Below are positions 30,150 through 63,148 of a stretch of 64,000 nt of DNA, piece by piece. Source of the stretch: a virus; the IMG/VR virus record IMGVR_UViG_3300017698_000036, positions 64,001-128,000 of that record; one strand, 5' to 3'. Numbering within the stretch: position 1 is the stretch's first letter; every line of letters starts with the position of its first letter. Both the position numbers and the translations under genes were made by a program. The notes under the pieces are model-generated. The model was not told the DNA's origin and did not search any database. It worked only from the letters and a program-made list of their open reading frames with translations.

Positions 30150-30505
30150 TGATTATCAGGTTGCGTGAGTATGACAAGAAGGGCTTTAGAATGTTTACCA
30201 TTTTTGATACGGAGGGTATGGACTTGTATGTCTTCTTGGTTCAATTAAAGGCTCACTTAACGTCCAATTTGGTTACTTGGAGCGATTCAGAAGATAAGTG
30301 TCGTGTGTCAAAGATAGATTTTGATTATTTTGATCAAATAGCCGAAGAGTATGGTATGCGTGTTGATGAGCTAATTTGTGAGATAGAGGATATGGACTTT
30401 TGTGTATCTATCGACAACGTCGCACAGTTTGTTGTGATAGGTTGTTCAAGACCAACGTACAATGATGGTAAGCGCTCGCTATTTTCAGAGGTGTATCATG
30501 AATAG
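30146..30505 (+). CDS. hypothetical protein with NDGKRSLFS tail
   Basis: ATGA overlap with the previous gene; C-terminal motif. Confidence 0.6.
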   Translation: MMIIRLREYDKKGFRMFTIFDTEGMDLYVFLVQLKAHLTSNLVTWSDSEDKCRVSKIDFDYFDQIAEEYGMRVDELICEIEDMDFCVSIDNVAQFVVIGCSRPTYNDGKRSLFSEVYHE

Positions 30506-30845
30506 TTGGAGAGATAGATGTTTTATGTTGTATTACGAAGAAGAGCTCGGCCGAATGAACGCAGTAGTAAACATGACCAATTACAATGACTGGCCATTAA
30601 CTGAGGATAAGTTAATTAGGGATTGTCGATGGGCTTGGGATATGTTACAGTATTATAACGGGCCCGGTGTAAGATACCGTTCAGAGGCTCTAGATTATTT
30701 TAATTTAGAATTCAACTTCAACCTTTCAATTGAAGACCTGTTGGGTGATTCGTATTTTATAAAAGAACAAGATTCAGAGTTTTTGATTTATAAGATTGAA
30801 CCCAGTAATGACGGTAAACACTCACTATTTTCAGAGGTGTATTGA
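30498..30845 (+). CDS. hypothetical protein with NDGKHSLFS tail
   Basis: ATG 30498 after GAGGTG; C-terminal motif. Confidence 0.6.
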   Translation: MNSWRDRCFMLYYEEELGRMNAVVNMTNYNDWPLTEDKLIRDCRWAWDMLQYYNGPGVRYRSEALDYFNLEFNFNLSIEDLLGDSYFIKEQDSEFLIYKIEPSNDGKHSLFSEVY

Positions 30846-30846
30846 G

Positions 30847-31218
30847 ATGAACTTAGATAGGTATGGTATAGTGTTTAAAAGATACCAAGAGGAAACGCTC
30901 GAATGGACCTACTTCATATGTTCTAAGAGGGGTAGAGGTAGACGAAGATACTCTAAGCAAGGAGAGTGTTTGTGTGTTCTGAGAGAGATGATAAGAAATA
31001 TTTGTAAACGAAATGTATTGGAGGAGTTATACATTCCCTTTGACTGTTTTGATGCAATATGGGAAGAGTTTAATGAATATGAATTAAACGTTTCTGAGTT
31101 AATATGTGATGATATAGACATCAAACGTGACTGTTATGACGGTACTGGAATAACGTTTACGTATGGTGGATTCTTTATCCCCGATGATGGTAAACATTCA
31201 CTATTCTCTAAGTTTTAA
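30847..31218 (+). CDS. hypothetical protein with DDGKHSLFS tail
   Basis: ATG 30847 after GAGGTG; C-terminal motif. Confidence 0.6.
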   Translation: MNLDRYGIVFKRYQEETLEWTYFICSKRGRGRRRYSKQGECLCVLREMIRNICKRNVLEELYIPFDCFDAIWEEFNEYELNVSELICDDIDIKRDCYDGTGITFTYGGFFIPDDGKHSLFSKF

Positions 31219-31295
31219 ACAATTTATTGATAATAAGTGATAATTAAAACCATATTGAATGAGATAACTTATTTTATTAAGGAGAAGATATAAAG

Positions 31296-32246
31296 ATGGA
31301 TCTTAAAATTTCTAGAAATGGCTCAAAACTTATTACGGAAAGTGAAAATAAAAGTATTAAGTTAGATCGTGGTTTTGCAAAAAAGATTATGAAGTACTCG
31401 AAAGAGTTTAATGATGTATACCAAAGAATCGCAGATGATATCGACGACGGTGTACCTGTGGACAAGGGAGAGATGAGGGAACTTATTTACGCTCTCAGAC
31501 ATACGGAAGGTGATCATGCCAAATCTGCAAAGTCTTTGGGAAATAAGCTCTATAAGATGCGCATGAGTGACGGTCAACCCGAACCTGCTTCCACACCCAA
31601 CGTTCAAACTCAATTTGACACCCTTACACCTCAATCCGCCACTCCTCCTGTACAGGATAATGGTGGTGTACCTCCAACCCCTCCAGAGACTCCAGTAGCT
31701 GCAGTAGCTCTAGAAGAGGATAGACTAAAAGAGATTTACAGTACTGCCCTTAATGAGTTCGACCCCAGTGGTATGTTTCATGATTATACCGACAAGGATC
31801 CTAAGTTAGCTCAAAAGATCAAGGCTCGTGATACCGCCGCGAAGAGTGCCAAGTTGAGACAGAAGAAAAAGTCTAAGAATGACTGGAAGGCCGGCACTGA
31901 GCTTAAAGGTGGACTTCCTGGTGGACAAGGTGGAATCGATTGGGGTAAATTTGCAGAAGCCATGAAGATGATTCGTGAACATGAAACCTCTACTGGTAAA
32001 TTCTTAAATGAACAAGAAGCTGAGTCACTCTTTAGAGGCCTTTTTGAGAGATTCGAAAAGATGGGTAAGGTTCGTCGTGTTAAGGGCAAGGAAGAGGTTG
32101 ACGAAGGTTGTGGTTACAAGAAAGAAAAGATGGAAGAGGAAAATCCTGTTGATGAGGCCGCTGACACAACCCGTCGTGAGAAGAAGATCGAGAAAAGTGG
32201 TGTACCTCAAAGAAGAACTTCTGACTTCAACGAATCTAAAAAATAA
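31296..32246 (+). CDS. charged, low-complexity probable internal head protein
   Basis: SD AAGGAG; Pro-rich linker; multiple [LIV]xE sites (LITE, FLNE, EVDE, PVDE). Confidence 0.4.
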   Translation: MDLKISRNGSKLITESENKSIKLDRGFAKKIMKYSKEFNDVYQRIADDIDDGVPVDKGEMRELIYALRHTEGDHAKSAKSLGNKLYKMRMSDGQPEPASTPNVQTQFDTLTPQSATPPVQDNGGVPPTPPETPVAAVALEEDRLKEIYSTALNEFDPSGMFHDYTDKDPKLAQKIKARDTAAKSAKLRQKKKSKNDWKAGTELKGGLPGGQGGIDWGKFAEAMKMIREHETSTGKFLNEQEAESLFRGLFERFEKMGKVRRVKGKEEVDEGCGYKKEKMEEENPVDEAADTTRREKKIEKSGVPQRRTSDFNESKK

Positions 32247-32249
32247 TTC

Positions 32250-32317
32250 TTAAATTAATCCTTGACAACTGAATAAAAATGGGGTATAACTAAGTAAGGA
32301 AGGATAGATTTATCATG
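32250..32317 (+). promoter_or_regulatory. promoter+RBS module repeated at 62449-62516
   Basis: TTGACA (32262) N17 TATAAC. 49 bp are identical to 62449-62497, with only 3 mismatches over the 68 bp through the ATG. Confidence 0.9.
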
Positions 32318-32671
32318 ATTGTAACAACCGAACATATATTCGATGAAGTTAAGATTTACCCGTGGGATATATTGGATTGGGTTGAGGAGGGTCAAACTGA
32401 GTACGGTAATGATTTAAATCTCAGATATACCGATATAACACACTTACCCGACAATATGAAAGTTGATGGTTATTTAGATCTCAGAGGTACCAACATAGCT
32501 CAATTACCCGACAATCTGCGAGTCGAGTATGGATTAAACCTTGGAGATACAAATATAACTGACTTACCCGATGACCTGTATGTTGGTGGTAGTTTAACTC
32601 TCAGTAATACCAATATGGCTGACTTACCGGTACAGGATAGTGTGTTTGTTGGAATGGAGATATTCAGATGA
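32315..32671 (+). CDS. 20-aa LRR family protein, copy 2
   Basis: MIVTTEHIFDEVKIYPWD; ends VGMEIFR with an ATGA overlap. Confidence 0.8.
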   Translation: MIVTTEHIFDEVKIYPWDILDWVEEGQTEYGNDLNLRYTDITHLPDNMKVDGYLDLRGTNIAQLPDNLRVEYGLNLGDTNITDLPDDLYVGGSLTLSNTNMADLPVQDSVFVGMEIFR

Positions 32672-33033
32672 TTGTAACAACCGAACATATATTTGACGAG
32701 TGTGTACCTAGAGTTTACCCGTGGGATGTATTTGAAAACATTTATGAAGGTCAGACTAGGTATTGTAACGATATAGATTTTTATGATACCGGTATAACCC
32801 ATTTACCAGATAATATGATCTATGAGGGTCATTTAGATTTAGAAGATAATACTGACATAATTGAACTGCCTGATAACATGACGGTCGATGGCTATTTGGA
32901 CATTAGAAGAACCAAAATATCTAAACTGCCTAATCACTTAAAGGTTCGTTGTTGGTTAAATACTGAAGATACCGGTATATGTAGTATTCCGGATACTGTA
33001 GAGGTGGGAGGGGTGACATATCTTGATAATTAA
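32668..33033 (+). CDS. 20-aa LRR family protein, copy 3
   Basis: MIVTTEHIFDECVPRVYPWD; first 26 nt identical to copy 2. Confidence 0.8.
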   Translation: MIVTTEHIFDECVPRVYPWDVFENIYEGQTRYCNDIDFYDTGITHLPDNMIYEGHLDLEDNTDIIELPDNMTVDGYLDIRRTKISKLPNHLKVRCWLNTEDTGICSIPDTVEVGGVTYLDN

Positions 33034-33342: not shown

Positions 33343-33717
33343 ATGGGTCGTAAGAGAAAAAACTTTAAATACAAACTCCTATTAACTCACGATATAGAGT
33401 CGGAGTGTTCGTACATAAAGACAGTTACGTCTAAATATTTTACTAAGTATGAAGTGGGCGGAGTTGAGTATCTTGTCAGTAAGAGATTTTATGGTTTAAA
33501 GGGGGAATATGACGACGAGAAGACCGTCGGATATAGTACTCTGACTGGAGACTCCGTTTATGTGTTTGTCGATGAATGGTACATGTACCTGGAGACCTAT
33601 AACGACGATATGCATAAGATACTATCTGGACCTTGCAAAACATTCAACGATAAGGTAAAGAGGTTTATTCCGGTGGCCTTAAATAGAGCTGCGTTACTAA
33701 GGAAGTTTATAAAATGA
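33343..33717 (+). CDS. hypothetical protein
   Basis: SD AGGAG; 124 aa. Confidence 0.55.
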   Translation: MGRKRKNFKYKLLLTHDIESECSYIKTVTSKYFTKYEVGGVEYLVSKRFYGLKGEYDDEKTVGYSTLTGDSVYVFVDEWYMYLETYNDDMHKILSGPCKTFNDKVKRFIPVALNRAALLRKFIK

Positions 33718-34100
33718 AAACTGAAGCTCGTAAAACTACGGCCAATTACCTGGGTAAGTACGACATTAGAATATCCGGATATGCGATGGATATGTTTGAT
33801 ATACCTTATTCAGATTCGTCCAATTTTTACAAACTAAACCCATCAGATAGATTAGAGGTACTGTGTAAGGCGATCACCTATATATTGAGAGCCGGTAGCG
33901 AATATCGAGGTACACCAAGTTACTTAAAGGTAACATACTACGATTGTTATGACTGGCTTAATATGACTATAGCCAAGGTGTTAGCCAATATAGGTCCTAG
34001 TACTGATCTGTTGTGTGAGGACAATTACAATTTGGGTTATTTAAGATTCAGGCTTAAACCCGCAGATGATGGAAGGTTTTCTTTATTTTCTAAAAACTGA
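33714..34100 (+). CDS. hypothetical protein with DDGRFSLFS tail
   Basis: C-terminal motif; start overlaps the previous gene. Confidence 0.55.
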   Translation: MKTEARKTTANYLGKYDIRISGYAMDMFDIPYSDSSNFYKLNPSDRLEVLCKAITYILRAGSEYRGTPSYLKVTYYDCYDWLNMTIAKVLANIGPSTDLLCEDNYNLGYLRFRLKPADDGRFSLFSKN

Positions 34101-34117: not shown

Positions 34118-34591
34118 TTGAGATTTATAAATTATGTTAAAAATAATAGTAAGTTGGAGTGGTTGGTCGATGACGTAGACAATCCAACTAGGATCATGTT
34201 TTGTTATCTAGGATCATATTCTAATCGATCCGGTACAGAAAAATGTCAGAAGTTCGTGGATAAGTATGGAGATAATAGGATCAAAAAGAAATTTCCCGTG
34301 TTTGAGGTAGATTTCGTATTTGATCACACTTGGTTATGGGAGTCATCTGCAGGTTGGGTATGTAAGGATGTTGACACCGATGAAGAGTTTAGGGTGTCTA
34401 TTGTAGACCAGGACGGTTTAATGGATAGGGTAGAACTCGTAAGAACAATAGAGGGAAACGGTGATGTCGACGACAAGAAAGTGTATCGTATGAAGGGTTT
34501 TTATCGTAAGAAGTCAAGTTATGTATACTTTATTCCGTTCGTTGGAAGTATAAATGAAGTATACAAACCAAAGGCACATCAATTATTTTAA
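34118..34591 (+). CDS. hypothetical protein ending in AHQLF
   Basis: TTG after GAGGAGG; 157 aa. Confidence 0.55.
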   Translation: MRFINYVKNNSKLEWLVDDVDNPTRIMFCYLGSYSNRSGTEKCQKFVDKYGDNRIKKKFPVFEVDFVFDHTWLWESSAGWVCKDVDTDEEFRVSIVDQDGLMDRVELVRTIEGNGDVDDKKVYRMKGFYRKKSSYVYFIPFVGSINEVYKPKAHQLF

Positions 34592-34609: not shown

Positions 34610-35314
34610 ATGGCATTTGATATTAGAGAACATTTTAAGAAAGAAGAGGTGTTGGACAAAGGGTATATTGAATTAACCGACGGCATGGTGAGTGATCCAT
34701 TGTTGAAGATAGTAAACTCCGCCAGGGTATCCTTTCAGAAGGAATCAACTGTATTAACTAAAAAGGATAAACAGTTGATTAACTATTTGTATGAACATAA
34801 ACACTTCAGCACATTCAGACATAGCTATTTTACGTTTAGAGTTGGTGCACCCCTGTTTTGTTTTAAGCAGTGGTGGAAGCATCAAATTGGAAGTGACTTT
34901 CTAGAACGCGATATCGGAGAAGTTCAAATGCCAGAGACGAACTGGAATGAGGTTAGTGGTAGATACGTGGAGTGGAAACCTGAATTCTATATACCTGCCG
35001 TGTGGAGAGGACAGAGTGATGATAACAAGCAGGGATCCTCTGATGTGGTAATTCATGTTGATGACTTTGAGGATAAGTGTAATCGTGACTATGATTACTA
35101 TAAAAGTCTATTGGATCGAGGGGTGGCTAAAGAGATGGCCCGTATGGTTCTCCCTCCCAATCTATACTCCGAGTGTATTTGGACTGTGTCGTTACAGGGA
35201 CTGCTATATTGGTTAGATCTAAGAAGCGACAGTCATGCTCAGTGGGAAATACGCCAATACGCCAATGCCATTGTCAGTCTCATGAGTGGAATGTTGGGGG
35301 ACATGGTGGAGTAA
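34610..35314 (+). CDS. thyX: flavin-dependent thymidylate synthase
   Basis: IVNSARVSF, LINYL..HKH.S.F.H, QWWKH, WNEVSGRY, GVAKEMARMVLP, HAQWEIRQYA. Confidence 0.93.
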   Translation: MAFDIREHFKKEEVLDKGYIELTDGMVSDPLLKIVNSARVSFQKESTVLTKKDKQLINYLYEHKHFSTFRHSYFTFRVGAPLFCFKQWWKHQIGSDFLERDIGEVQMPETNWNEVSGRYVEWKPEFYIPAVWRGQSDDNKQGSSDVVIHVDDFEDKCNRDYDYYKSLLDRGVAKEMARMVLPPNLYSECIWTVSLQGLLYWLDLRSDSHAQWEIRQYANAIVSLMSGMLGDMVE

Positions 35315-35721
35315 TGTCCAAAGATGATAATGAATTTGAGATCTATGCGGAGGGTCGTTACGGGGCCGTTCATTTCAATCTACAGGTTAATCTAAGGTGT
35401 GGGTTGGGAATGTATCACGGCCTCATGGAAACATTAACAAGATACGATGAGTATATACATTATCTTATCTGGAGTCGTAAGTTACAACGAGAAGAGTGGG
35501 ATACCATTAAGGATATGTATAACCTGAATGGTATGGACGTCGATAGAGTCCTAGAGTCTCAGGATGTATGTGGAGATAAGTTAGATATGGTAGCCCTTTT
35601 GGTTGGAGAAGATCATTTCGAGGTTGAGTTTGTGGTAGATAATATAGCCAAGTCATATAAATACTATACACCAAAGGATGATGGTCGACATTCTTTATTT
35701 TCGGTTACATACGATGCATAG
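35314..35721 (+). CDS. hypothetical protein with DDGRHSLFS tail
   Basis: TAATG overlap with thyX; C-terminal motif. Confidence 0.55.
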   Translation: MSKDDNEFEIYAEGRYGAVHFNLQVNLRCGLGMYHGLMETLTRYDEYIHYLIWSRKLQREEWDTIKDMYNLNGMDVDRVLESQDVCGDKLDMVALLVGEDHFEVEFVVDNIAKSYKYYTPKDDGRHSLFSVTYDA

Positions 35722-36613
35722 AAATAGTGTCAAATCCATTGTATTGGGGGCCACGTCTGAATCTATCAAGTATGCCATGAGTAATAATTCTCATGTGATA
35801 TATAGAAATGTAGACTATCCAGTTCAGTTTAATATTGATGATATAGACATTATGGAGACCAGTATGATGTTACTGTCTTTAGTGGGAAATCTTCACGAGG
35901 TAGAGAGACCAACCGTAACTTTGGATATGGTTAACTCTCGAATCAAATATGAAAACATTGGCCAGGAGATAGAGTTTGAGTATGAAGAGTTGAAAATATA
36001 TGATGACTCAATGATTCGAGAGTTGGCAGGAAAGACATACTCCGACGAAAGCTTTGAGTATCGTATTACGTATGAGTTTCTTGTTAACATAGGTCGTTTT
36101 CACTTGGCCGGTAAAGATTTTGACTTTGACGATTTTGGGTTTGACAGTATGGATATTGGTAAAAGCGTTAAGGGACGATCGTCAAATACGCTTAGTCGAA
36201 ACTGTGTAGTGGAGACAGAACGTTGTAGTATCGAGGATTTGTGTGTTACTCACGGTTTCAGGATAAATTGTATTGACTCACCACCTTTAACTGTGTATAA
36301 TGATGGTTGGGAAGATTTGATAGAGTGGGAAGAGACGCGATTTGATAGTTTGGGAGATGACTGGGAATCTATCAGAGCTCTTCAGAGATACTCAGACACA
36401 TTTACCAATATATTCACAGTTATACAGGCTGATGAGTACGATGAGTCTTGGATAGAAAAGTTCGAGGTGTTACTGTGTGAGTGTATAGTGGCTAAGACTT
36501 TAACCAAGGAGGTTGAGTTGACTGAATTGAGGGTGGAAAAGATTAGACTCAACAAGGTCTACGATAGTTTAAGAGAAGAGGTTGAGAGTTATGATAATGT
36601 GGAGGTTTTATGA
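35714..36613 (+). CDS. hypothetical protein with a degenerate Rossmann-like N-terminus
   Basis: SIVLGATSESIKYA resembles a beta-alpha dinucleotide-binding start without the full GxGxxG. Confidence 0.35.
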   Translation: MHRNSVKSIVLGATSESIKYAMSNNSHVIYRNVDYPVQFNIDDIDIMETSMMLLSLVGNLHEVERPTVTLDMVNSRIKYENIGQEIEFEYEELKIYDDSMIRELAGKTYSDESFEYRITYEFLVNIGRFHLAGKDFDFDDFGFDSMDIGKSVKGRSSNTLSRNCVVETERCSIEDLCVTHGFRINCIDSPPLTVYNDGWEDLIEWEETRFDSLGDDWESIRALQRYSDTFTNIFTVIQADEYDESWIEKFEVLLCECIVAKTLTKEVELTELRVEKIRLNKVYDSLREEVESYDNVEVL

Positions 36614-37728
36614 AGAAACCCATAAGTGTGTTTGATCACAAGTCTATAAGGTATAAAAATAACGTAGTTGGTATAATTCCAGTTAACGAAAACCATCTGG
36701 GTTTAAATTACCCATGGCCTGATTATATGATGCCGATTGACAAAGATTATACCTTGGTAGAGAACGCTGTGGTGACTCAATCTGTCTTGGGAGTAGATAG
36801 TATATGGATTGTAGCCTCTCCTAGTACTACAGGTTTATTAAAGGCTAGAGTTGGGGAGAACATACTTGACCCAACATCTTTAGACAGACTACAGGATGAG
36901 TTTCTTAGATCCACATTACTTGATAAGAGATCAGAGTGTATGAGAGAAACCAACTGGTGGACGTCGGAGATAAAGATAATACCTATATATTATATTAGTT
37001 TACCGAATTCAGATAGGTTGGCTGGTTTGGAGGGGTCTGATCTATGGAAGGTCATGTATGGGGCTTATACTCTTAACAATGTGTTACGTAAATTTACATC
37101 ATTTATGGAACCCAAGAAATATGTGGTTACCAATCCTTATGGTATCACTCCGATGTTGAAGTACTTTACTGATCGTAATAATCATGAAGTTTTAAAGCAG
37201 CTGCGAATGAGAATGGCCAACGGACGTCATCGTGGATATATCGGAAAGGGAGAAGGTAGGAGTCGGTCTGATCGGTCGGATAAGGATCAAATGTTGTTAT
37301 TTGTTGATGAAAGTGACAAAAGTGCAGTAGACGGTAATAGGCTAACGTTCTCTTTTGATAAAAAAATATGGGAAGAGATGAGAAAATATGTTTACAAAGA
37401 GTCTAAAACGTGCTATAACATTAATGATGACGGTAGTACCTCACTCATGACGTTTAAAGACTTTTTACCAACTGTCTCTAAACACTATAAGAGGGCCCAC
37501 CGATACACTATGTCTCCATATCACGAGATAAACTCGTATGAGGATTACTCTAGGTATATGGGATTTAGAGCCAGTTTGATGGAGAATGATGATAAATGTG
37601 ATAAGATGGATTTTAAACCTAATTATTACATGGAAGACTATCGTTTAGGTAGGTCAGGATGGGGAGAGAGGGACAACGATGTTGATGTTATTTTGTTTAA
37701 AAATCTATTTACTGGTGATTTTGTATAA
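36610..37728 (+). CDS. degenerate sugar-nucleotidyltransferase (GT-A/NTP_transferase)-like protein
   Basis: VVGIIPV......L..PWPDYMMPI...TLVENAV......GVDSIWIV pattern. Confidence 0.45.
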   Translation: MKKPISVFDHKSIRYKNNVVGIIPVNENHLGLNYPWPDYMMPIDKDYTLVENAVVTQSVLGVDSIWIVASPSTTGLLKARVGENILDPTSLDRLQDEFLRSTLLDKRSECMRETNWWTSEIKIIPIYYISLPNSDRLAGLEGSDLWKVMYGAYTLNNVLRKFTSFMEPKKYVVTNPYGITPMLKYFTDRNNHEVLKQLRMRMANGRHRGYIGKGEGRSRSDRSDKDQMLLFVDESDKSAVDGNRLTFSFDKKIWEEMRKYVYKESKTCYNINDDGSTSLMTFKDFLPTVSKHYKRAHRYTMSPYHEINSYEDYSRYMGFRASLMENDDKCDKMDFKPNYYMEDYRLGRSGWGERDNDVDVILFKNLFTGDFV

Positions 37729-38086: not shown

Positions 38087-38115
38087 TTGACAAGTCAATA
38101 AAAATCTGGTACAAT
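38087..38115 (+). promoter_or_regulatory. sigma70-type promoter
   Basis: TTGACA-N17-TACAAT. Confidence 0.7.
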
Positions 38116-38161: not shown

Positions 38162-38662
38162 ATGTTGGGATTTTTAGGTGGTGTATTTGGTTACTTAATA
38201 TTACTGTATATTGTGATCCATATAAGAGTAGCATATACGTCAGAAGTGGATGAGATAAATGAGCTTTTTAATCAAAGACGTGAAATTATTGAATATGCAT
38301 ATTTACTCAATCAAGAACCCGTTGTCGAAATGAAAGATCATGAAAGATTTCGTAAGTTTAGATTTCATAAAAATATAGACCTTCAATCTAGAGACAAAAG
38401 GTTTAAATTGGATATTGTCCATGAGGCCACAATGTTGAGTGGTAAATATCGTGACTATAAGAGTGAACGAATTCGTGAAACCACAAAGGCCTTATTTAAA
38501 CTGTATACAACCGCATATTTTAATCATAGAGAGGTTGTGAAAATATATGATGAGTTTTTAAAACAAAGAGTCAATAATGGTCATCAAACGCTAAAAGACT
38601 ATATGGTATTCCACAATTCAGATTATCCAGTTAGGGATTTCGATAAATTTCAACTGTTTTAA
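38162..38662 (+). CDS. N-terminally membrane-anchored protein ending in KFQLF
   Basis: TM MLGFLGGVFGYLILLYIVIHI; SD AAGGAG. Confidence 0.6.
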   Translation: MLGFLGGVFGYLILLYIVIHIRVAYTSEVDEINELFNQRREIIEYAYLLNQEPVVEMKDHERFRKFRFHKNIDLQSRDKRFKLDIVHEATMLSGKYRDYKSERIRETTKALFKLYTTAYFNHREVVKIYDEFLKQRVNNGHQTLKDYMVFHNSDYPVRDFDKFQLF

Positions 38663-38672: not shown

Positions 38673-38978
38673 ATGATTGTTAAAAAGAAGACCGAGTATG
38701 TTAAATCCCAAAAGGGTAGGTATTTCGAACCACCAAAGCGCCACCGCCAAATCACGTATGATAGGTTTACGGATCTTGGTTTAAGTTGTTATGATTGTGC
38801 GTATTTTAATGGAGTAGGCGAAGAGTGCACATGTTGGATTCGTCAGTGTAAACCAGGAGGCCTCCCCCAAGGTATGATTGCATCCATATTAGCTTGTTGT
38901 AATCTACCCAAAGCACTTTGTATACAGTTTAGATTAATGGCAACTGTTAAAATATATAAAGATTTTCAACTATTTTAA
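38673..38978 (+). CDS. Cys-rich hypothetical protein ending in DFQLF
   Basis: CYDCAYF...C.C pattern; C-terminal motif. Confidence 0.55.
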   Translation: MIVKKKTEYVKSQKGRYFEPPKRHRQITYDRFTDLGLSCYDCAYFNGVGEECTCWIRQCKPGGLPQGMIASILACCNLPKALCIQFRLMATVKIYKDFQLF

Positions 38979-38990: not shown

Positions 38991-41900
38991 ATGAGTAAAA
39001 GACAATACGTTCCACTTCACACACACACTGGTCTTGGATCCCCCTATGATGGCCTCGGATACCCAGATGAATTCGTAAAATTCGTATCTGAAAAGGGTAT
39101 GAACACAATGGCCATTACCGAACATGGTAACATGAACTCTTTGGGAGAGTTTGTATCTGCATTAAAGTCACACAGTAAAGACGATGGAGGAATGAAGGGT
39201 ATATATGGGGTGGAGGCTTACTACATACCCTCTATAGACGAATGGCAAAAGAACTATGATTTGTTCGAACAGTTGAAGAAGGACAAAAAGATTAAACGTG
39301 GTACAAAGAAGATTAATATGGATACGGACGATATCACTGAAGGGTCTTATGTCGACATAGCTTGTTGGGTTTCTAAGGATGACTCTGTTGATATTGATGA
39401 TATTGTAATGAAGATAAAGGAGAGATATCACATCCTCCTCTTGGCCATGGATGAGGAGGGGTTAAAGAATTTATATACCCTCGTTTCCAAATCTCACATG
39501 GTTGAAGATAAAAGATATTTTTATAAGTTTCCACGTATTGACAAGGATCTACTTATGAGGCATAATAAGGGTATCATAGGTTCTTCTGCGTGTATGGGAG
39601 GAGTACTTGGTGGTGTATACTGGAACTATAAGGATGTTGTACCCGATATACAGAATAAGATAGATGACACCAACAGGGAGTTTCAATCCATCTTTGGTGA
39701 TAGATGGTACAATGAAATTCAGTTTAATAAAATTAAAGGTCAAAAAGAGATAAATGATCACGTAATCAAATCGGCTCATAAACTCAACATACCAATTATA
39801 GCCACTGTGGATAGTCATTTTACAGATAAGAATCTATGGCAGGCTAGGTGGTTATATAATAAAATGAGGTTCATGAGAGGATCAAGTGTTCAGGAGATAG
39901 AAATACCTCAGGATATTGATGAGTTAACATGTCAACTTTATATGAAGGACGGTGACGAGGTGTTCGAGTCATATAAGGAGTATTCTTCTGAGATACCTGA
40001 AGAGTTGGTTGAGAGGGCAATTCAAGAAACGGTTAAGCTGTCGGACAGAATAGACACGTTCTACCCAGACAACTCCGTAAGACTCCCTAATTTTATTCTA
40101 CCCGAAGGTGTTGATCCTGATGATGAGTTACGTAGACTTGGTCTTGAGGGTTTAAGACAGAAGGGTTTCATAAATGATCCGGATTATAATGAACGATTGG
40201 AACATGAGTTAGATGTTATCATTTATAGGGGATTTTCACGTTACTTCCTGGCCATGAAGGTGATCGTAGGTAAGGCCAAAGAGACTATGCTAAATGGAGT
40301 CTCTCGTGGTTCTGCGGGAGGTTCACTATTGTCCTACTGTTTGGGTATAACCGACATTGATCCCATACCCATGAACTTGGATTTTTCAAGGTTTATGACT
40401 AAGGGAAGTGGTGGTTATCCGGATATTGATTTCGACGTAAGTGCACCTGCAGACTTTAAGGAACTGTTGAAGTCCGAATGGGGGGAAACCTCCTTGGCCT
40501 ATGTTAGTAATTGGAACAAGTTAAGTTTCAAAAGCTTGATCAAGGATATAGCTAAGTTTCACGGTATACCATTCCAGGAAGTTAATAATGCGACCACCCA
40601 AATGATTGAACAGATTGTTGATACAGTCCGGACAATGGATGAGTACAAGAATGAGATCATATCCGCCAGTAGTTTTAAGGTTGAGTTAAAACATCTCAAC
40701 TACTCTAAGGCTTATAGGGAGTTTGTTACAAGATATCCTGAAATAAAGGAACCGTTGGAGACTCTCTTGGGACAGGTTCGTGATGTCGCTACCCACGCTG
40801 GTGGTGTCATTATCGGTGACAATCTTGAGAGTGATATGCCACTGATACGTAAGAATGACAAACTCCAAACTCCATGGCCAGAGAGTGGAAAACATCGTGT
40901 GTTGGAGGAGATGGGTTTCGTCAAGTTCGACATATTGGGTATCTCTACTTTGAAGATGATTGAGAATACTATAGAGTTGATATTGAAGAAACGTGGTAAC
41001 TCGTCTCCATCTTTTGAGGATGTTAGAAACTACTATGAACAAATTATGCTCCCTAGTGTTCTAAATATGGAAGATCCCGACGTATGGAAGAATATATTTC
41101 ATGACGGTAATATGATAGGAGTTTTTCAATTTACGAGTCCCGGTATGCAAAGTTTCTGTATGCAGGTAAAACCAAGCTCCATCGTAGAATTGGCAGCTGT
41201 TACCGCCATCTACAGACCAGGACCGATGGGTGCCAATGTACATAACGACTATGCACAAACTGCAAGTGGGAAAAGAAAGTCTGTTTATCTTGGAGACGAA
41301 CATCGTAATGTGACAGAAAAGACGTTTGGTTATTTAGTATTCCAGGAACAACTAGCTGAATTGGTTCATAAGCTGGGTGACGGTATTACGATAGATGAGG
41401 GTCATAAGATTCGTAAATTGTTAACCAGTAAAGGTGAGAAGCAAAAGCTACAGGCCGAAGAGTACAAGGATAAGTTCATTGTTGGGTGTAAGGCTCATGG
41501 TATCACCAAAACAAAAGCCCTCAAGCTGTGGGCAGACATTGTAAAGTTCTCAGGTTATGGTTTCAACAAGATTCATGCCGTAGGTTATTCTGTGGTATCA
41601 TATCAGTGCGCCTGGCTCTGTCACTATTTCCCTGTGGAGTGGGCTAGTGCCTATCTGAATAAGGAATCTACCAGTAAGTTGGAGAAATCTATTGCCACAG
41701 TTCAAAAGTCTGGATTTAAGATTATGGAAGTGGATATTAACAGTTCGGGGTCGGAGTGGATTCCAATTGGTCAAAACGAGGTTGTACAGCCGTTAACTTC
41801 AATTAAAGGGTTGGGTATTAAGACCGTTGAGGCCGTAGAGAGGAATCGACCAATCGCAAGTCTGGAAGAGTTGATGTTTGGTGGTAAGTTTAAGAAATCT

Positions 41901-45276: not shown

Positions 45277-45706
45277 GAATAGAACTTTCAAGTCGTACAA
45301 GTCAACACGGAAGGGGTGGGGTAAGAGGTATTCCTCCAAAGCCAACAAAGAACAGGCCTTGGAAGAAATAGAACTTGATAAAAGGTTGATGGACCTACTT
45401 GACCTAAAGGACGAGTATGAGATTCCAAGAATATATACGAGGCTAATAAGGGAGAAGTGGACATTATACGATATCTTACGTATACTGTTAGAGGGTTTTA
45501 TTGTCGACAATTCTAATATAATGAAATATTTGAGTCTAACAAAAAGTGAAGAGAATGAACCTTCATACCCTAATAAATATAGAGAGTTAGATGAAAAAGA
45601 TATTGAAGTTAGAGAAGAGTTGAGAAAGATGTTCGATTATGAATATTTAAGTAAAGAAGAAAAAGAGTCACTATTTGATTTAATAGAGCAAGAAATGGAT
45701 AATTAA
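45263..45706 (+). CDS. hypothetical protein
   Basis: ATG 45263 overlaps the end of the previous gene; basic N-terminus. Confidence 0.45.
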   Translation: MGLNKNRTFKSYKSTRKGWGKRYSSKANKEQALEEIELDKRLMDLLDLKDEYEIPRIYTRLIREKWTLYDILRILLEGFIVDNSNIMKYLSLTKSEENEPSYPNKYRELDEKDIEVREELRKMFDYEYLSKEEKESLFDLIEQEMDN

Positions 45707-54339: not shown

Positions 54340-54879
54340 ATGAAGATGAACAAGCTTGACGGTTTAAGGGTATCACTCATGGATGTATGTGAAAATCTTT
54401 ATGGTACCATGGTTTTTGATCACGGCATTATTATATACGAAGGTTCCCTGTCCTTACGCAATTCCGACATAACACATCTTCCAGACAACTTTTATGTAAA
54501 CGGAGGCCTGAACATAGGTGGGTCTAAGATGACACAGTTACCAGGAAATTTAACTGTCCACGATCATTTCAATTTGTCCCACACCAATATTACAGAACTC
54601 CCAGATGATTTAAAGGTTGGTAAGTGGTTGAATGTTCGTGGTTCTAAGGTGACTAAAATTCCGGACAATATGACTGTAAATGGTACCTTTATTGCGGCCG
54701 CCACACCGTTAGAGCTCTTACCAGGTGGTCTACATGTACGTGAGGGTTTGGATTTGTCAAACACCAATATTACAAAATTACCCGATGATCTAATTGTGGA
54801 TGGTTGGTTAGATATTAGAAACACCAATATAACCAACATTCCTGAAACCGTGAAGATTGGTGGAGAGATATTTAGATGA
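54340..54879 (+). CDS. 20-aa LRR family protein, copy 4 (different N-terminus, about 7 repeats)
   Basis: ITHLPDNFYVNGGLN repeats; ends IGGEIFR with an ATGA overlap. Confidence 0.8.
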   Translation: MKMNKLDGLRVSLMDVCENLYGTMVFDHGIIIYEGSLSLRNSDITHLPDNFYVNGGLNIGGSKMTQLPGNLTVHDHFNLSHTNITELPDDLKVGKWLNVRGSKVTKIPDNMTVNGTFIAAATPLELLPGGLHVREGLDLSNTNITKLPDDLIVDGWLDIRNTNITNIPETVKIGGEIFR

Positions 54880-55286
54880 TCACAACAACCAGGCATATAT
54901 TCGACGAACCCAAAGTCTATCCGTGGGACATACTTGAATGGGTTAAGGAGGGACAGAGATGCTATGATGGACCAGTTGATCTGTCTCTTGAACATGTAAC
55001 CCACCTTCCGTATGGTATGGAGGTAAATGGTGCGTTGGATTTAGAGAACTCACATTTAACCGTTCTCCCTAGCGGTTTACGTGTTGAAGATTGGTTAGAT
55101 CTCAGTGGTACCAACATAACTCATTTACCTGATGATCTATATGTTGGTGGTAGTTTGTATCTCGGTGGTACAAATATAACTCATTTACCCGACAATCTAG
55201 AGGTTGGAGGTAGTTTAGATATAAGAAACACCAACATTGTTGACATTCCAGATACTGTAAAGGTGCTCAGGAGGATAATAAGATGA
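54876..55286 (+). CDS. 20-aa LRR family protein, copy 5
   Basis: MITTTRHIFDEPKVYPWD; ends RRIIR followed by ATGA. Confidence 0.8.
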   Translation: MITTTRHIFDEPKVYPWDILEWVKEGQRCYDGPVDLSLEHVTHLPYGMEVNGALDLENSHLTVLPSGLRVEDWLDLSGTNITHLPDDLYVGGSLYLGGTNITHLPDNLEVGGSLDIRNTNIVDIPDTVKVLRRIIR

Positions 55287-55931: not shown

Positions 55932-55960
55932 TTGACAAACGGGTCAATATCGGGTATAAT
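55932..55960 (+). promoter_or_regulatory. sigma70-type promoter upstream of LRR copies 6-7
   Basis: TTGACA-N17-TATAAT. Confidence 0.75.
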
Positions 55961-55982
55961 TTTAATAGAGAGGATTTATATT

Positions 55983-56339
55983 ATGTTAGTAACAACCGAA
56001 CATATATTTGACGAGTGTATACCTAGAATTTATCCATGGGATGTATTGGATTGGGTCGAGGAGCGCCAAACTAGGTACCATCGTAGTTTATTTCTCAGAG
56101 ATACTAACATAACTCATTTACCTGACAATATGACAGTTAATGGTTGTTTAAATCTCAGAGATACTAACATAACTCATTTACCTAATAATCTAAAAGTTAT
56201 TGGTGATTTATATCTAGACAGAACCAACATAACTAAATTACCCAACGATCTATATGTTGGTGGTAATTTAGATTTATATGGTATCAATATAACCAACATG
56301 CCTGAGAGTGTACGTGTTGGTGGAGAGATAATAAGATGA
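55983..56339 (+). CDS. 20-aa LRR family protein, copy 6
   Basis: ATG 55983 after GAGAGG; MLVTTEHIFDECIPRIYPWD; 31-nt direct repeat with 60-nt period (56093/56153); ends VGGEIIR with ATGA. Confidence 0.8.
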   Translation: MLVTTEHIFDECIPRIYPWDVLDWVEERQTRYHRSLFLRDTNITHLPDNMTVNGCLNLRDTNITHLPNNLKVIGDLYLDRTNITKLPNDLYVGGNLDLYGINITNMPESVRVGGEIIR

Positions 56340-56842
56340 ATTTATATGAGGCATTAGAAAAAGACTATCCTGGAAGATTTTACGAAGATCAAAAAGAGTT
56401 TGGTTGTAGTTTATATCCTCATAATAAAACAAACTTATTACCTGTTTCCATGACGGTGTTGGGTGACCTTAATTTAGAAAACACAAGGGTGGATAAACTG
56501 CCAGAGTTTCTGATTGTGAGTGGTACTTTGGATATTAGAGGTACCAAGATAAGAACCTTGTCCAATGTGATAAAGGTTGGTAGAGGTCTACAGGCTTCTC
56601 ACTCTAAATTGACGTCTTTACCAGACAACCTCCACGTTGCTTACTTAGACATTAGTAGCACCGACGTAGAGGAGTTACCTGTGGGGTTAGTAGTAGATGG
56701 TTATGTTGACGTAACAAATACACGTATCACAAGTATTCCGAATGATAGTTTGATCGGAGGTAGAATTTATTCAAAAAAACCTCTTGACAAACCAAAAAAA
56801 ATAGACTATAACTATAGTATGATTGGTTACAAAGTAATTTAA
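56336..56842 (+). CDS. 20-aa LRR family protein, copy 7 (divergent, different N-terminus)
   Basis: LP..MTVLGDLNLENT, LPEFLIVSGTLDIRGT, LPVGLVVDGYVDVTNT repeats. Confidence 0.7.
   Translation: MNLYEALEKDYPGRFYEDQKEFGCSLYPHNKTNLLPVSMTVLGDLNLENTRVDKLPEFLIVSGTLDIRGTKIRTLSNVIKVGRGLQASHSKLTSLPDNLHVAYLDISSTDVEELPVGLVVDGYVDVTNTRITSIPNDSLIGGRIYSKKPLDKPKKIDYNYSMIGYKVI
56784..56812 (+). promoter_or_regulatory. sigma70-type promoter embedded in the end of LRR copy 7
   Basis: TTGACA-N17-TATAAC. Confidence 0.6.
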
Positions 56843-59322: not shown

Positions 59323-59748
59323 ATGGATATAAAGAGTAGAAAATTAAATAACAAAAATAGGAATTATTTTAAGGTATATTTCATAGTAAATAAAAGATAC
59401 AACCTGGTATGGCATGTTCGTCATGTAGAACGTTATGTGTCTGGATTTCGCAAGGGTCAAATTAAACTGAGAAAAGACATGATAAGTCTCACTAGAAACC
59501 AAGCTCAGGGGAAATTAAACCGTCTCTATTGGCGTAGTGATGATGAGCAGACATATGAAGTAGGAATCAATCAAAAAGAGTTAGAGACTTACTACGGAGG
59601 TAAAACAGATTGTGATATAAAACTCAACCCTGATTCAATAAACAGTTACAAGGTCACAGTATACCTTTCAGATTTAGAGATAGTAGAGCACTCTGTCGAC
59701 GTTACACAGTTGATTGAAAAAGATTCTGAAATGTTTTCCTTATTTTAA
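59323..59748 (+). CDS. hypothetical protein ending in MFSLF
   Basis: 141 aa; C-terminal motif; a promoter follows the stop immediately. Confidence 0.55.
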   Translation: MDIKSRKLNNKNRNYFKVYFIVNKRYNLVWHVRHVERYVSGFRKGQIKLRKDMISLTRNQAQGKLNRLYWRSDDEQTYEVGINQKELETYYGGKTDCDIKLNPDSINSYKVTVYLSDLEIVEHSVDVTQLIEKDSEMFSLF

Positions 59749-59806: not shown

Positions 59807-60097
59807 ATGTTAGTACCAACCAAGCATATATTCGATGAGTGTAGAGTTTATCCATGGGATGTATTGGAATGGATTGAAGAAGGTCAAACTGACTATATCG
59901 GTAGTTTAACTCTCAGAAATACCAATATAACCCATTTACCCAATAACATGACGGTCGATGGTTGGTTAGATCTCAGGGGTACCAACATGGTTCAACTGCC
60001 CGATTATCTATATGTTGGTGGCGGTTTGTTTCTCGGTGGTACAAATATAATTAACATACCAGAAAGTGTATTTGTTGGTGGAGAGATATTCAGATGA
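59807..60097 (+). CDS. 20-aa LRR family protein, copy 8
   Basis: MLVPTKHIFDECRVYPWD; ends VGGEIFR with ATGA. Confidence 0.8.
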   Translation: MLVPTKHIFDECRVYPWDVLEWIEEGQTDYIGSLTLRNTNITHLPNNMTVDGWLDLRGTNMVQLPDYLYVGGGLFLGGTNIINIPESVFVGGEIFR

Positions 60098-60909: not shown

Positions 60910-60918
60910 GAGTTTATT

Positions 60919-61119
60919 ATGGAAGGAACATATGATGGAAAAGTAACCTATCGTGACAAGGATGATATTTCTCTCTTTCTTCGGCATTGGGAGGGAGTTG
61001 ATACGGTAAGTTGGACGGCCGACGGCAAGGTTAGAATTGTGGTAGATTCATCAATGACTTCTACCGATAAGGCCCTGTGGCAAAAACGTCAATATTTTGC
61101 AAATAATCAGTTGTTTTAG
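60919..61119 (+). CDS. hypothetical protein ending in NNQLF
   Basis: SD AGGAG; C-terminal motif. Confidence 0.55.
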   Translation: MEGTYDGKVTYRDKDDISLFLRHWEGVDTVSWTADGKVRIVVDSSMTSTDKALWQKRQYFANNQLF

Positions 61120-61178: not shown

Positions 61179-61228
61179 AAAGGTATGGGAATAAACCCAT
61201 ACTAACTTAGAATGGAAAGAGAGTTAAA

Positions 61229-61390
61229 ATGTCCAAGACTTACAGAAAACAAATTGGTAACAAGAAAATCAAAAGACAAGATAATAAAAAAGGTAGAAGA
61301 CATAATGTGAAACAGAAACTTCACGATCTTGTCAACAGTGGAGAATGTACCAACTGTGATTTTGAAATTCCAGAAACTTGGGAAGGGTAA
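61229..61390 (+). CDS. small basic protein (53 aa, absent from ORF track)
   Basis: MSKTYRKQIGNKKIKRQDNKKGRRHNVKQKLHDLVNSGECTNCDFEIPETWEG. Confidence 0.5.
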   Translation: MSKTYRKQIGNKKIKRQDNKKGRRHNVKQKLHDLVNSGECTNCDFEIPETWEG

Positions 61391-61395
61391 CTAAA

Positions 61396-61659
61396 ATGAC
61401 CAAAGTTAAAACAGGACCTAATATTTTCTCTCAAATGGAATATGGTTTGGACTCTCCATCTGCTTTAAAAAGAAAGATTGACACATTGGCAGGTACCTTG
61501 GTCGAGAAAATGAACGAGGAGTTGGATACTGATAAGTTCAAAGATATGAACTCCGACATGTTGCGACTTGTTAAAGAGGAGTTGGAGAAGGATATCAAAA
61601 AGGCTATTGATAGTGCTTTTAGTGAGTACATGAAAACTAAAAGTCATTCATTGTTTTAA
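61396..61659 (+). CDS. hypothetical protein ending in KSHSLF
   Basis: ATG 61396; helical; C-terminal motif. Confidence 0.55.
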   Translation: MTKVKTGPNIFSQMEYGLDSPSALKRKIDTLAGTLVEKMNEELDTDKFKDMNSDMLRLVKEELEKDIKKAIDSAFSEYMKTKSHSLF

Positions 61660-61706
61660 GATATAAACTGACAACGGGATAATTATTATAACAGGAGACA
61701 GAAAAT

Positions 61707-61865
61707 ATGTCAGATTTTTTATATGAAATGGAAATTATAGATAAGAATGGTAATAAGATCTTACTTAAAACCAATGATAGAACAGAGTATCAACAGTGGT
61801 TAAAAGAGTACAAATCTTCACCATCACCTCAAAAAGAATCTAGAAAGGTTCTTCTCAAAGGTTAA
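61707..61865 (+). CDS. small protein (52 aa, absent from ORF track) ending ESRKVLLKG
   Basis: SD AGGAG, 9 nt upstream of the ATG; GGATAATTA upstream. Confidence 0.55.
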   Translation: MSDFLYEMEIIDKNGNKILLKTNDRTEYQQWLKEYKSSPSPQKESRKVLLKG

Positions 61866-61874
61866 TAAGTTCAA

Positions 61875-62138
61875 TTGTTGGTCCCGCCTGTCTTTATTAC
61901 AAATCTTAAAAATATCAAAAATGTGGATGTTTGGAAACGTGAACTCGTAGAACAGTTCAAGTATTTGTTAATGACTGAAGATGGTACCATACTCGTTACT
62001 GAATTGTTGAAAGAGTTGAGTTTAACGGGTGTGGATGTGGAAGAGATAGTTGAAATGATGTACAGTAAGGTTAACGATGGTAGGTACTCTCTGTTCTCCG
62101 AAGAGTATGTTGTAGAACTAGGAGAGGAAAGGTTTTAG
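61875..62138 (+). CDS. hypothetical protein with NDGRYSLFS motif
   Basis: Motif at 62073-62099; start uncertain. Confidence 0.45.
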   Translation: MLVPPVFITNLKNIKNVDVWKRELVEQFKYLLMTEDGTILVTELLKELSLTGVDVEEIVEMMYSKVNDGRYSLFSEEYVVELGEERF

Positions 62139-62143
62139 TTCAT

Positions 62144-62452
62144 ATGTATTTCAGTGTAGCAAAACAGTTTTCAATTTTTCCAGGAGCTAGATATAGAAAG
62201 ACTTCCAATTGGAGCGCGCAAGAGTTATATGAAGATCATCTTGAAGTAATGTTAAAACAGTCTGTTAAGTATAGTATCAAACTGCACTTTGACCTAGATG
62301 GTACCTGTGGATATGGTGTTAGTTTTTTACACCAACTGGCATTCCTGATAAAAACAAATATACCGGAATCAATTCCATTTATAAGGTTTATATCAAAAGA
62401 AGAACCATATTTGGTGGAAGAATTCATGGGATATATCGACTCAATTTATTAA
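62144..62452 (+). CDS. DUF4325/STAS-like small protein
   Basis: VAKQFS.FPGARY......SA.E.....L.......DLDGT.GYG.SFL pattern. Confidence 0.55.
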   Translation: MYFSVAKQFSIFPGARYRKTSNWSAQELYEDHLEVMLKQSVKYSIKLHFDLDGTCGYGVSFLHQLAFLIKTNIPESIPFIRFISKEEPYLVEEFMGYIDSIY

Positions 62453-62516
62453 ATTAATCCTTGACAACTGAATAAAAATGGGGTATAACTAAGTAAGAAA
62501 GGACAGATTTATAATG
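62449..62516 (+). promoter_or_regulatory. promoter+RBS module repeated at 32250-32317
   Basis: TTGACA (62461) N17 TATAAC. Confidence 0.9.
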
Positions 62517-62810
62517 TTAGTAACGACCAAACATATATTCGATGATTGTATACCTAGAGTCTATCCGTGGGACGTATTTGATTGGATTGAAGAGGGTCAA
62601 ACTGAGTTCTATGGTAACTTAAGTTTTCACGAAAGTAGTATAACCCACCTACCCAACAATATGAAGGTTGAAGGTTGGTTAGATCTCACTAATACCAATA
62701 TAACTAAATTACCCGACAATCTGTACGTTGGCGGTAATTTATATATCGAAAGAACCAACATAACTAATTTACCCAACGATCTAAGACTTGTTGGGGGGGT
62801 AATAAGATGA
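62514..62810 (+). CDS. 20-aa LRR family protein, copy 9
   Basis: MLVTTKHIFDDCIPRVYPWD; ends VGGVIR with ATGA. Confidence 0.8.
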   Translation: MLVTTKHIFDDCIPRVYPWDVFDWIEEGQTEFYGNLSFHESSITHLPNNMKVEGWLDLTNTNITKLPDNLYVGGNLYIERTNITNLPNDLRLVGGVIR

Positions 62811-63148
62811 AAAAGATTGAAATCAAGGTAGGTCCATATCGTTACGGGCCCTTTGAGGTTTATTATAATAACATATCTAAATCATGCCGAGTCATTCCGA
62901 TCGTTGCTAATAGTGCTCCGGCTGCAGACAGTGTCAGTTGTTTTTGTGATATGTTACATAATGAATATTCTAAAACAAATCCTCTGGTGGCCACCCAGTC
63001 ATGGGCCGCGGCATGGTGTGAGTTGGAAATGATAGAAATTCGCGATGATATACATGTAGGTTACCATCCAGAGCGGGAAGAGTATACATTTTACCCATTA
63101 GACCCAAAGAATGATGGAAGATTTTCTCTATTTTCAGAGTTTTATTAA
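62807..63148 (+). CDS. hypothetical protein with NDGRFSLFS tail
   Basis: ATGA-coupled to LRR copy 9; a promoter follows the stop. Confidence 0.6.
   Translation: MKKIEIKVGPYRYGPFEVYYNNISKSCRVIPIVANSAPAADSVSCFCDMLHNEYSKTNPLVATQSWAAAWCELEMIEIRDDIHVGYHPEREEYTFYPLDPKNDGRFSLFSEFY

Follow-up and report, generated by a model that had tools for sequence, protein, structure and literature searches.

Tagged genes at the locus

The window analysed here is a 64-kb stretch, positions 64001-128000 of a 138,656-bp (138.7 kb) contig from an uncultured T4-like phage; coordinates are those of the window unless given as genome positions. On its plus strand lie seven genes whose products carry the motif [ND]DG[KR]xSLFS close to the C-terminus. 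Tagged genes 1 to 3 are found at 30149..30505 (118 aa, acidic; motif at 30461-30487, followed by five residues and the stop), 30498..30845 (115 aa; motif at 30807-30833) and 30847..31218 (123 aa; motif at 31183-31209). The downstream neighbour of gene 4 (33714..34100; 128 aa; motif at 34065-34091) ends in QLF-stop, and gene 5 (35314..35721; 135 aa; motif at 35677-35703) directly follows thyX. Gene 6, at 61875..62138, encodes at most 87 aa, its start being uncertain, and the 12 residues after its motif (62073-62099) form the longest extension among the seven. Gene 7 (62807..63148; 113 aa; motif at 63110-63136) shares 4 nt with an LRR gene at the latter's stop, and its own end lies 84 bp before a plus-strand gene for a zincin metallopeptidase fused to a vWA domain (63232..64000, continuing to genome position 128671; 479 aa), which is followed by a gene for a MoxR-type AAA_5 ATPase (genome 128790-129911). 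A sigma-70-like promoter is present at 63156-63184, ahead of the zincin-vWA gene.

Seven further plus-strand genes of the window encode proteins that stop exactly at a related sequence. Three end in FQLF-stop, namely, a 194-aa protein encoded downstream of PolA-like genes (19117..19701), a 166-aa protein with an N-terminal hydrophobic helix (38162..38662), and a Cys-rich 101-aa protein with dnaE immediately downstream (38673..38978). The others end in HQLF-stop (34118..34591; 157 aa), FSLF-stop (59323..59748; 141 aa; after a SprT-like gene), NQLF-stop (60919..61119; 66 aa) and HSLF-stop (61378..61659; 93 aa). A near-consensus sigma-70-like promoter lies at 38087-38115, ahead of the gene at 38162..38662.

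Over the whole contig, the number of small accessory proteins that bear the tag is at least 20, that is, 20 of 150 ORFs (~13%, about one in seven) or 20 of the 94 ORFs of at most 260 aa. All 20 are accessory ORFs within that size limit, and none of the recognised replication or structural enzymes of the phage has the tail. The carriers are scattered across 96 kb, with 18 of them in the company of replication and nucleotide-metabolism genes, away from the structural block, and nine inside the 15 kb around the zincin-vWA/MoxR pair (p = 0.027 by gene count). Several sigma-70-like promoters occur in the carrier regions outside the structural block, which weakly suggests early expression.

One core peptide in two forms

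A six-frame regular-expression search of the window returned the seven copies of [ND]DG[KR]xSLFS described above and no others, all of them on the plus strand, in frame and at ORF ends, 2-12 residues ahead of the stop. Extension of the search to the whole contig added an eighth copy, at genome 43673-44005. The motifs vary synonymously (GAT/GAC, GGT/GGA, AAA/AAG, CTA/TTA/CTG, TTT/TTC), with four Arg codons and four TCN Ser codons, and the carriers use all three stop codons. Because these codons vary synonymously, it is the peptide that is constrained, and selected, rather than the DNA. Both the position of the seven motifs and their free synonymous variation had been described in an earlier note on this DNA, and both were borne out.

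ORFs ending exactly in [QS]LF-stop number 12 in the whole contig, seven of them inside the window, where 0.05-0.06 such termini would be expected for the contig; no such ending occurs among ORFs of at least 60 aa in the three minus-strand frames. Of the 37 [QS]LF tripeptides in the proteome (~44,600 residues), 20 are at the C-terminus or at most 13 residues from it. The overlap that the earlier note had seen between the core of its motif and a [HF]-[QS]-L-F-stop tag holds, and one core, P-K-x(1-3)-[KR]-[FHY]-[SQ]-L-F, fits both forms, the [KR]-[FHY]-[SQ]-L-F part usually having P-K or P-x ahead of it. The terminal form stops at the phenylalanine (12 proteins), and the long form, [ND]DG[KR]xSLFS[EK]xY, runs 3-13 residues beyond it (eight proteins) and is invariant across 9-14 residues. 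The same note put the tagged proteins of the 64 kb at about 15, which was right: there are seven plus seven, and 45203-45706 has a doubtful KESLFD, nine residues before its end.

Ahead of each long motif lies a strand-like hydrophobic stretch, so that the recurring order in these carriers is strand-like stretch, turn-like P-x-[ND]DG and SLFS stretch; six of the long-motif proteins also have a weak [DE]-L-L-x-[DE] element 22-33 residues upstream. With such a hydrophobic stretch ahead of the motif, tail and body might form a hairpin together, which counts against a portable address.

Carrier bodies and lineage specificity

Little similarity among the bodies had been claimed, and this stood for 35 of the 36 carrier pairs compared, in which none was detected. 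It failed for the remaining pair, genes 1 and 3, which are paralogues (p = 5.6e-4). The carriers gave no Pfam, PHROG or NCBIfam matches. The carrier at genome 43673-44005 has a body copied from residues 29-89 of the major capsid protein (E = 4e-6), and a tandem sibling next door is without the tail; a fragment of the terminase ATPase has an FSLF end. Outside this genome a single carrier was found, P0128, which is encoded on a different contig and ends in the long motif. Six metagenome homologues of P0128 end just ahead of the tail position, and in its family, with 1097 representatives, the tail is present in 0 of the 149 other members inspected, these being the best representatives. In the AlphaFold2 model of P0128 the body is predicted with confidence (pLDDT 85-98) and the last ten residues with low confidence (pLDDT 49), although the latter could merely reflect missing alignment depth there.

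The carrier bodies are of independent origin and, as judged from their sequences, the tag is portable. The proposal that a short peptide was grafted onto unrelated proteins is strengthened by the capsid and terminase fragments and by the tailless family of P0128, and we hold with about even confidence that the carriers share a portable address peptide at the C-terminus, as opposed to the conserved core of a single protein family. The earlier note had also named lack of conservation in orthologues as grounds for refutation. Formally it is not kept in those of P0128, the only family with outside relatives, but its absence there marks the tail as a lineage-specific add-on and is not an argument against a tag.

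Besides P0128, no carrier was found elsewhere in 5.8 billion proteins, IMG/VR or GTDB genomes, and four phage contigs with a DnaE 42-44% identical (L006-L009) have no tag near dnaE. The tag is thus, on the sequences searched, specific to this phage lineage. Literature searches found no paper describing such a tag or motif in phages, which agrees with the earlier statement that it is not a described phage motif.

Candidate reader and alternative explanations

A docking, sorting or degradation address, as first proposed, is a candidate function for a tail of this kind. One common partner would read all tails, so that the carrier proteins would be handled as a group. The best candidate for this reader or processor, which we put forward tentatively, is the phage's own zincin-vWA protein together with the MoxR AAA+ ATPase. 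These DUF2201_N + DUF2201 and AAA_5 genes form a pair that adjoins tagged gene 7, and their HExxH (residue 118 of the zincin-vWA protein), MIDAS (vWA DxSxS at 348) and Walker A motifs are all intact. The action of the pair on the tails would be either docking or cutting, and cutting after SLF would convert the long form into the terminal one. Against a link between pair and tail, Alteromonas phage AD45-P1 has the pair but a shared tail in 0 of 43 neighbouring genes, the tail-sharing neighbours in Bacillus phage AR9 are plain paralogues, and the enrichment of tags near the pair is weak after allowing for gene density. It may simply be that tags and pair both lie in accessory regions, probably with early expression. 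The contig is ~70% complete, and a different reader may lie in the missing part.

Taken further, these elements could make up an undescribed addressing system of T4-like phages, in which a zincin-vWA adaptor-peptidase and a MoxR motor would read a lineage-specific tail on a tenth to a third of the small early proteins, and dock, remodel or cut them as one group. There would be two tiers in this phage, the long form being latent until cut after SLF, and the capsid and terminase fragments would be enrolled as clients, possibly as decoys. We regard this composite reading as rather doubtful. The tagged capsid and terminase copies are of separate interest, and bacterial immune sensors recognise both protein classes.

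Degradation is one alternative use of such tails, as C-terminal degrons also bring unrelated proteins to one machine through a terminal hydrophobic tail that is sometimes exposed by a cut. ClpX reads signals such as the LAA end of ssrA and the basic-hydrophobic end of MuA, and latent VAA ends are uncovered when LexA and RseA are cleaved. The tail would then time the removal of early accessory proteins by an AAA+ protease, for example host ClpX/ClpA or FtsH with the phage ClpP (46555-47346; E = 1.7e-34), the long form being a latent degron exposed after a cut. Basic residues precede the hydrophobic tail, which lies at the extreme C-terminus in 12 proteins and is carried only by the accessory ORFs, never by a recognised replication or structural enzyme, all of which would suit a degron. 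However, it matches no known degron, including LAA and MuA-type ends; the stretch over which its long form is invariant is far longer than a degron usually requires; the ~70% complete contig yielded no unfoldase gene; and ClpP-encoding phage contigs with a DnaE 44% identical to that of this phage have no tails. The tail is also confined to one lineage. The wholly different tails of the comparable set in Vibrio phage Va1 are more in keeping with a phage reader that co-evolves than with a host protease that is conserved, and we consider a degron unlikely. Recruitment to a sliding clamp, either the host beta clamp or an unrecognised phage clamp, is in our view very unlikely. Clamp-binding peptides are likewise short, hydrophobic and L-F-ending, may be terminal or internal, and are carried by several unrelated proteins of one genome and read by one pocket. 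The bacterial consensus QL[SD]LF, the SLF of the delta subunit and the ASLF-containing tail of the RB69 polymerase resemble the core x-Phi-[SQ]-L-F, T4 gp43, gp33 and gp55 have gp45-binding tails, and this phage replicates with a DnaE-type Pol III alpha. Yet, set against this consensus, with its defining Gln at position 1 and L-F or L-x-L at positions 4-5, position 1 in the 20 tails is K, R, D, N, T or S, with Q in one only, L-F being invariant. Moreover, the tail is absent from the phage DnaE, PolA-like protein, flap endonuclease, RecA, DnaB helicase and SSB; no DnaN, gp45 or clamp-loader Pfam match was obtained in the contig (70% complete); twenty small unannotated clients are far more than any known clamp has; and a conserved host pocket predicts the same tail in many phages, not one unique to this lineage.

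Two other explanations concern the carriers themselves. The eight long-motif proteins could be one fast-evolving paralogue family whose best-kept element is a C-terminal beta-hairpin, the QLF ends being unrelated or convergent. Their similar sizes (87-135 aa), the acidity of most, the tandem arrangement of three of the genes with one pair demonstrably paralogous, and the strand, turn and SLFS order recurring in all of them, together with the weak upstream element in six, point in this direction. However, one of the bodies is a capsid fragment, that of P0128 belongs to a separate large family without the tail (hhalign of this family against three carriers gave probabilities below 1%), 35 of 36 body pairs are unrelated, and the same core ends 12 more unrelated proteins, which makes a single family quite unlikely. 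Finally, encapsulins load cargo via short C-terminal peptides that bind an HK97-fold shell, and the tail could similarly be a signal by which proteins enter the T4-type prohead, to be injected together with the DNA. The virion module is T4-like (portal, terminase, sheath), and tails are found on an N-terminal capsid fragment and a terminase fragment. We judge this highly improbable, since 18 of the 20 carriers are encoded outside the structural block, where the promoters suggest, though weakly, early expression, T4 capsid-targeting signals are N-terminal, and one carrier has a membrane helix.

Comparison with known systems

The closest parallel to the tail and its candidate reader, the zincin-vWA/MoxR pair, is found in Vibrio phage Va1, where 17 small ORFs with the ending [YHN]PEx[FL][IL]-stop lie around a gene of the same architecture and show no similar bodies among their 136 pairs; these tails are kept in phiKT1024. 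In all three T4-like phages many small ORFs of unrelated body share a tail, a DUF2201_N + DUF2201 gene is situated among them and a MoxR-like ATPase is encoded in the genome. We take as a Va1-type set at least 10% of genes being small, with unrelated bodies and one shared tail, and here the proportion is 20 of 150. The Va1 tail also ends in two hydrophobic residues, but its sequence is wholly different from [KR]Phi[SQ]LF, it is always terminal, whereas eight carriers here run 3-13 residues past the phenylalanine, and its carriers form one tight array instead of being scattered. For the candidate role of the pair in reading or cutting tails, the association fits in Va1 and phiKT1024 but not in AD45-P1.

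The function of most small early genes of large phages is not known, and a common tail on 13% of the proteome implies that its carriers are handled together. Finding the reader would assign a shared step, be it docking, cutting, removal or localisation, to twenty proteins at once and, if the Va1-type sets are the same thing, likewise to hundreds of proteins in cultured T4-like phages. At 9-14 residues, the tail peptide itself could be put to experimental use, in pull-downs and in fusions to reporters.

Group 2.2 (T4-like) jumbo phages have a MoxR-vWA pair with an N-terminal metallopeptidase, for which a role in virion assembly and structural-protein processing was proposed (Iyer et al., 2021; PMC7824862). 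The gene pair and the ClpP, SprT-like peptidase and Hsp20 repertoire are the same here; that work does not mention tagged clients, and its proposal, which is not one of handling early proteins, counts against the pair as tail reader. FxSxx-COOH modules, found with vWA-MoxR systems, have zincin peptidases that reportedly remove from small, variable proteins a conserved C-terminal peptide (Kaur, Burroughs, Iyer and Aravind, 2020; PMC7159879). Linked to vWA-MoxR ternary systems, these modules are actinobacterial conflict systems with one or few precursors, a separate peptidase gene, radical-SAM/SPASM partners and AP-ATPase effectors (PMC7159879). NCBIfam FxSxx models gave no match here at E <= 0.1, radical-SAM (PF04055) gave none in the incomplete contig, and carriers end in F-S-x-x, F-S-x-x-x or longer, or stop at F, rather than in F-x-S-x-x. 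The phage shares with these modules small, fast-diverging proteins with a conserved C-terminal peptide, a zincin metallopeptidase, with cleavage here a prediction, and the association with vWA and MoxR components, and differs from them in that its peptidase is fused to the vWA domain and accompanied by 20 carriers.

A C-terminal peptide in two versions

The earlier note had described seven copies of a [ND]DG[KR]xSLFS motif near the ends of proteins encoded between window positions 30461 and 63136, with synonymous codons varying freely. All seven are in frame on the + strand, 2-12 residues ahead of the stop; synonymous codons are interchanged freely among them, and each of the three stop codons occurs. 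The earlier observation is thereby confirmed and extends further than first reported. An eighth copy of the long motif lies in the remainder of the contig, outside the window, and 12 ORFs in the contig end exactly in [QS]LF-stop, against 0.05-0.06 predicted from composition; in the antisense frames of the contig, no long ORF has such an end. Aligned on L-F, both forms have a common core, namely, a Pro, basic residues and then [FHY]-[SQ]-L-F, and the long form amounts to this core with D-G inserted before the basic residue and a continuation into S-[EK]-x-Y. Because of this shared core, the long and terminal forms are treated here as one tag in two versions. The contig encodes 20 carriers, all of 260 aa or less, 18 of them outside the structural block and none with a significant family match.

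Resemblances to the tag are also found elsewhere. With K-E-S-L-F placed nine residues ahead of its stop, the protein of window 45203-45706 may be the window's fifteenth carrier or a coincidence, ~1 chance match being expected. At N-termini, tag-like sequences occur at residues 6-14 of the protein from genome 131923-132336 (K-D-Q-L-F-S-N-E-Y, with the LFSxxY extension retained), and at residues 5-9 of that from genome 131495-131656 (Y-K-Q-L-F).

Bodies of the tagged proteins and the phage that encodes them

The motif had been read as a short peptide grafted onto unrelated proteins, and this reading is well supported by the unrelated bodies, by capsid and terminase fragments, and by the P0128 family, which lacks the tail. 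When bodies without the motif were aligned locally and compared with shuffles, those of window 30149-30505 and 30847-31218 proved to be related (p = 5.6e-4), and the remaining 35 body pairs showed no similarity, in agreement with BLAST. Residues 29-89 of the major capsid protein are copied in the carrier at genome 43673-44005, whose tandem sibling is likewise a capsid fragment and lacks the tail. A terminase-ATPase fragment encoded two genes upstream of this carrier ends in FSLF. The terminase-ATPase fragment and the capsid copies may be decoys or assembly regulators. Across the region as a whole (genome 42176-44329, ~20 kb before the window), the terminase-ATPase fragment and a tandem pair of copies of major-capsid residues ~20-90 are arranged around a gene whose product has a peptidoglycan-binding domain.

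A tail-profile search of 5.8 billion proteins returned only proteins of the phage itself and P0128, a protein of 160 aa from another contig (JGI, 24 kb), with the long motif at its end. Six metagenome homologues of P0128 end exactly where its tail starts, and within its family (1097 representatives) the tail is present in none of the other 149 best. Comparison of this family with three carriers using hhalign gave a probability of <1%, and a PDB search with the fold of the P0128 body had no significant match. For P0128, AF2 modelling from 60 homologues gives the body pLDDT values of 85-98 and the last ten residues a value of 49, which is only mild evidence that the tail is flexible, because it has no alignment depth. 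A word-based search for relatives of the tagged proteins returned the query alone, and DNA-pattern scans for the motif gave one chance match in IMG/VR, zero with a longer pattern, and two chance matches in GTDB genomes. Assignment of the protein of window 62807-63148 to DUF4313 was rejected, as its ESM Atlas score of 0.86 is under the level at which the tool considers a match more than a lead, and Pfam does not assign it to that family. Combined, the body alignments, the capsid and terminase fragments, the profile search and the P0128 results show a peptide appended to bodies of separate origin inside one phage lineage.

The DnaE of this phage is only 29-44% identical to its nearest public relatives, and at most 29% identical to those of cultured phages (tblastn). 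Megablast of 20 kb of sequence against phage records gave no match, and an IMG/VR search for related loci, using one tagged protein and DnaE as queries, found none. The IMG/VR viral contig (138,656 bp, 38% G+C, completeness estimate ~70%), of which the window covers bases 64001-128000, has ~150 ORFs, nearly all on the same strand, and no tRNAs. A T4-like virion module comprises a Gp20-type portal, a T4-type terminase, sheath, baseplate and a gp19-like tube. The contig also encodes a DnaE-type Pol III alpha, a PolA-like protein, an intein-bearing DnaB, RecA, a gp32-like SSB and a flap endonuclease; RNR, ThyX and dUTPase for nucleotide metabolism; ClpP, a GroEL-like chaperonin, an Hsp20-like protein and a SprT-like protein; and a zincin-vWA protein together with a MoxR-type ATPase.

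Alongside its T4-type virion module, the phage has both a PolA-like polymerase (window 16176-18813) and the DnaE-type enzyme (38991-42506), and no T4-type polymerase accessory genes, namely, clamp and clamp loader, were detected in the contig. The DnaE has no recognisable clamp-binding motif. Inteins are present in the DnaB-like helicase (window 24751-26592) and in a C5 cytosine methyltransferase (genome 132399-134045). Two genes upstream of dnaE, encoding 311 and 372 aa (window 35678-37728), are kept beside it in those phage contigs whose DnaE is closest to this one. The N-terminus of the 372-aa protein resembles a sugar nucleotidyltransferase, a possible hint at modification of DNA or nucleotides. 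One JGI contig, L009, apparently phage and with a DnaE 42% identical to that of this phage, has Cas7-like and faint Cas5-like genes (9228-12224) located 3' of dnaE, dUTPase and a PAPS-reductase-like gene.

Candidate readers of the tail

That the tail is a portable address read by one partner seems to us about as probable as its opposite; should it be so, the zincin-vWA/MoxR pair is our best candidate for the reader, though less likely than not. The seventh tagged gene of the window (62807-63148, +) is followed after 84 bp by the first gene of the pair (from 63232), which is preceded by a near-consensus sigma-70-like promoter, and the HExxH, MIDAS and Walker A motifs of the pair are intact. The 15 kb around the pair hold 9 of the 20 tags, which is a significant enrichment when judged by length (p = 1e-4), but only a weakly significant one when genes are counted (p = 0.027). 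The alignment of the two forms suggests that a cut after SLF might convert the long form into the terminal one.

The core of the tag resembles a clamp-binding peptide; however, the defining Gln of such peptides is missing, the tail is found in none of the DNA enzymes of the phage, DnaE included, and neither clamp nor clamp loader is detectable in the contig, which is ~70% complete. A hidden clamp beside dnaE was considered and rejected, since the conserved 372-aa neighbour is nucleotidyltransferase-like instead. The tail may also be a degron, with the phage ClpP assisting in its recognition, but this would leave unexplained both the invariance of the long form over 9-14 residues and the confinement of the tail to one lineage.

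Ten paralogous short leucine-rich-repeat (LRR) proteins are encoded as well, at window 20818-21240, 32315-33033, 54340-55286, 55932-56842, 59807-60097 and 62514-62810, and at genome 129935-130330. Their repeats are 20 residues long; ~30 near-invariant residues cap the N-terminus, whereas the C-terminus is uncapped. Several of their genes are directly 5' of tagged genes. This recurring order made them candidate readers, which we set aside since their variable faces would probably fit an invariant tail poorly.

Tails beside the pair in other phages

Homologues of the zincin-vWA protein were found by tblastn in 20 cultured phage records. In Vibrio phage Va1, which also has a MoxR-like gene, 17 ORFs of 75-139 aa lie around the gene of like architecture and end in [YHN]PEx[FL][IL]-stop, with body similarity in none of 136 pairs, and these tails are retained in phiKT1024. 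In Bacillus phage AR9, five proteins encoded 3' of the pair have a common tail, yet they are ordinary paralogues, and for this reason AR9 is not counted as support for a link between tail and pair. In Alteromonas phage AD45-P1 the pair is present, and no common tail is visible. In the jumbo Vibrio phage 2.275.O (L025, 17619-18894), three adjacent ORFs share the tail A-D-L-[VI]-L, 2.4-3.7 kb downstream of AAA+ and zincin-vWA genes.

In the literature, we found no paper describing such tails. The pair itself was described earlier from T4-like jumbo phages, where it was given a role in virion assembly and tagged clients went unmentioned (PMC7824862). A published analogue is the peptide-processing module of vWA-MoxR conflict systems, in which a zincin peptidase removes a conserved peptide from the C-terminus of a variable small protein (PMC7159879). 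The hallmarks of that family are missing from the present phage, which has no FxSxx end, no model match and, in a contig ~70% complete, no radical-SAM gene.
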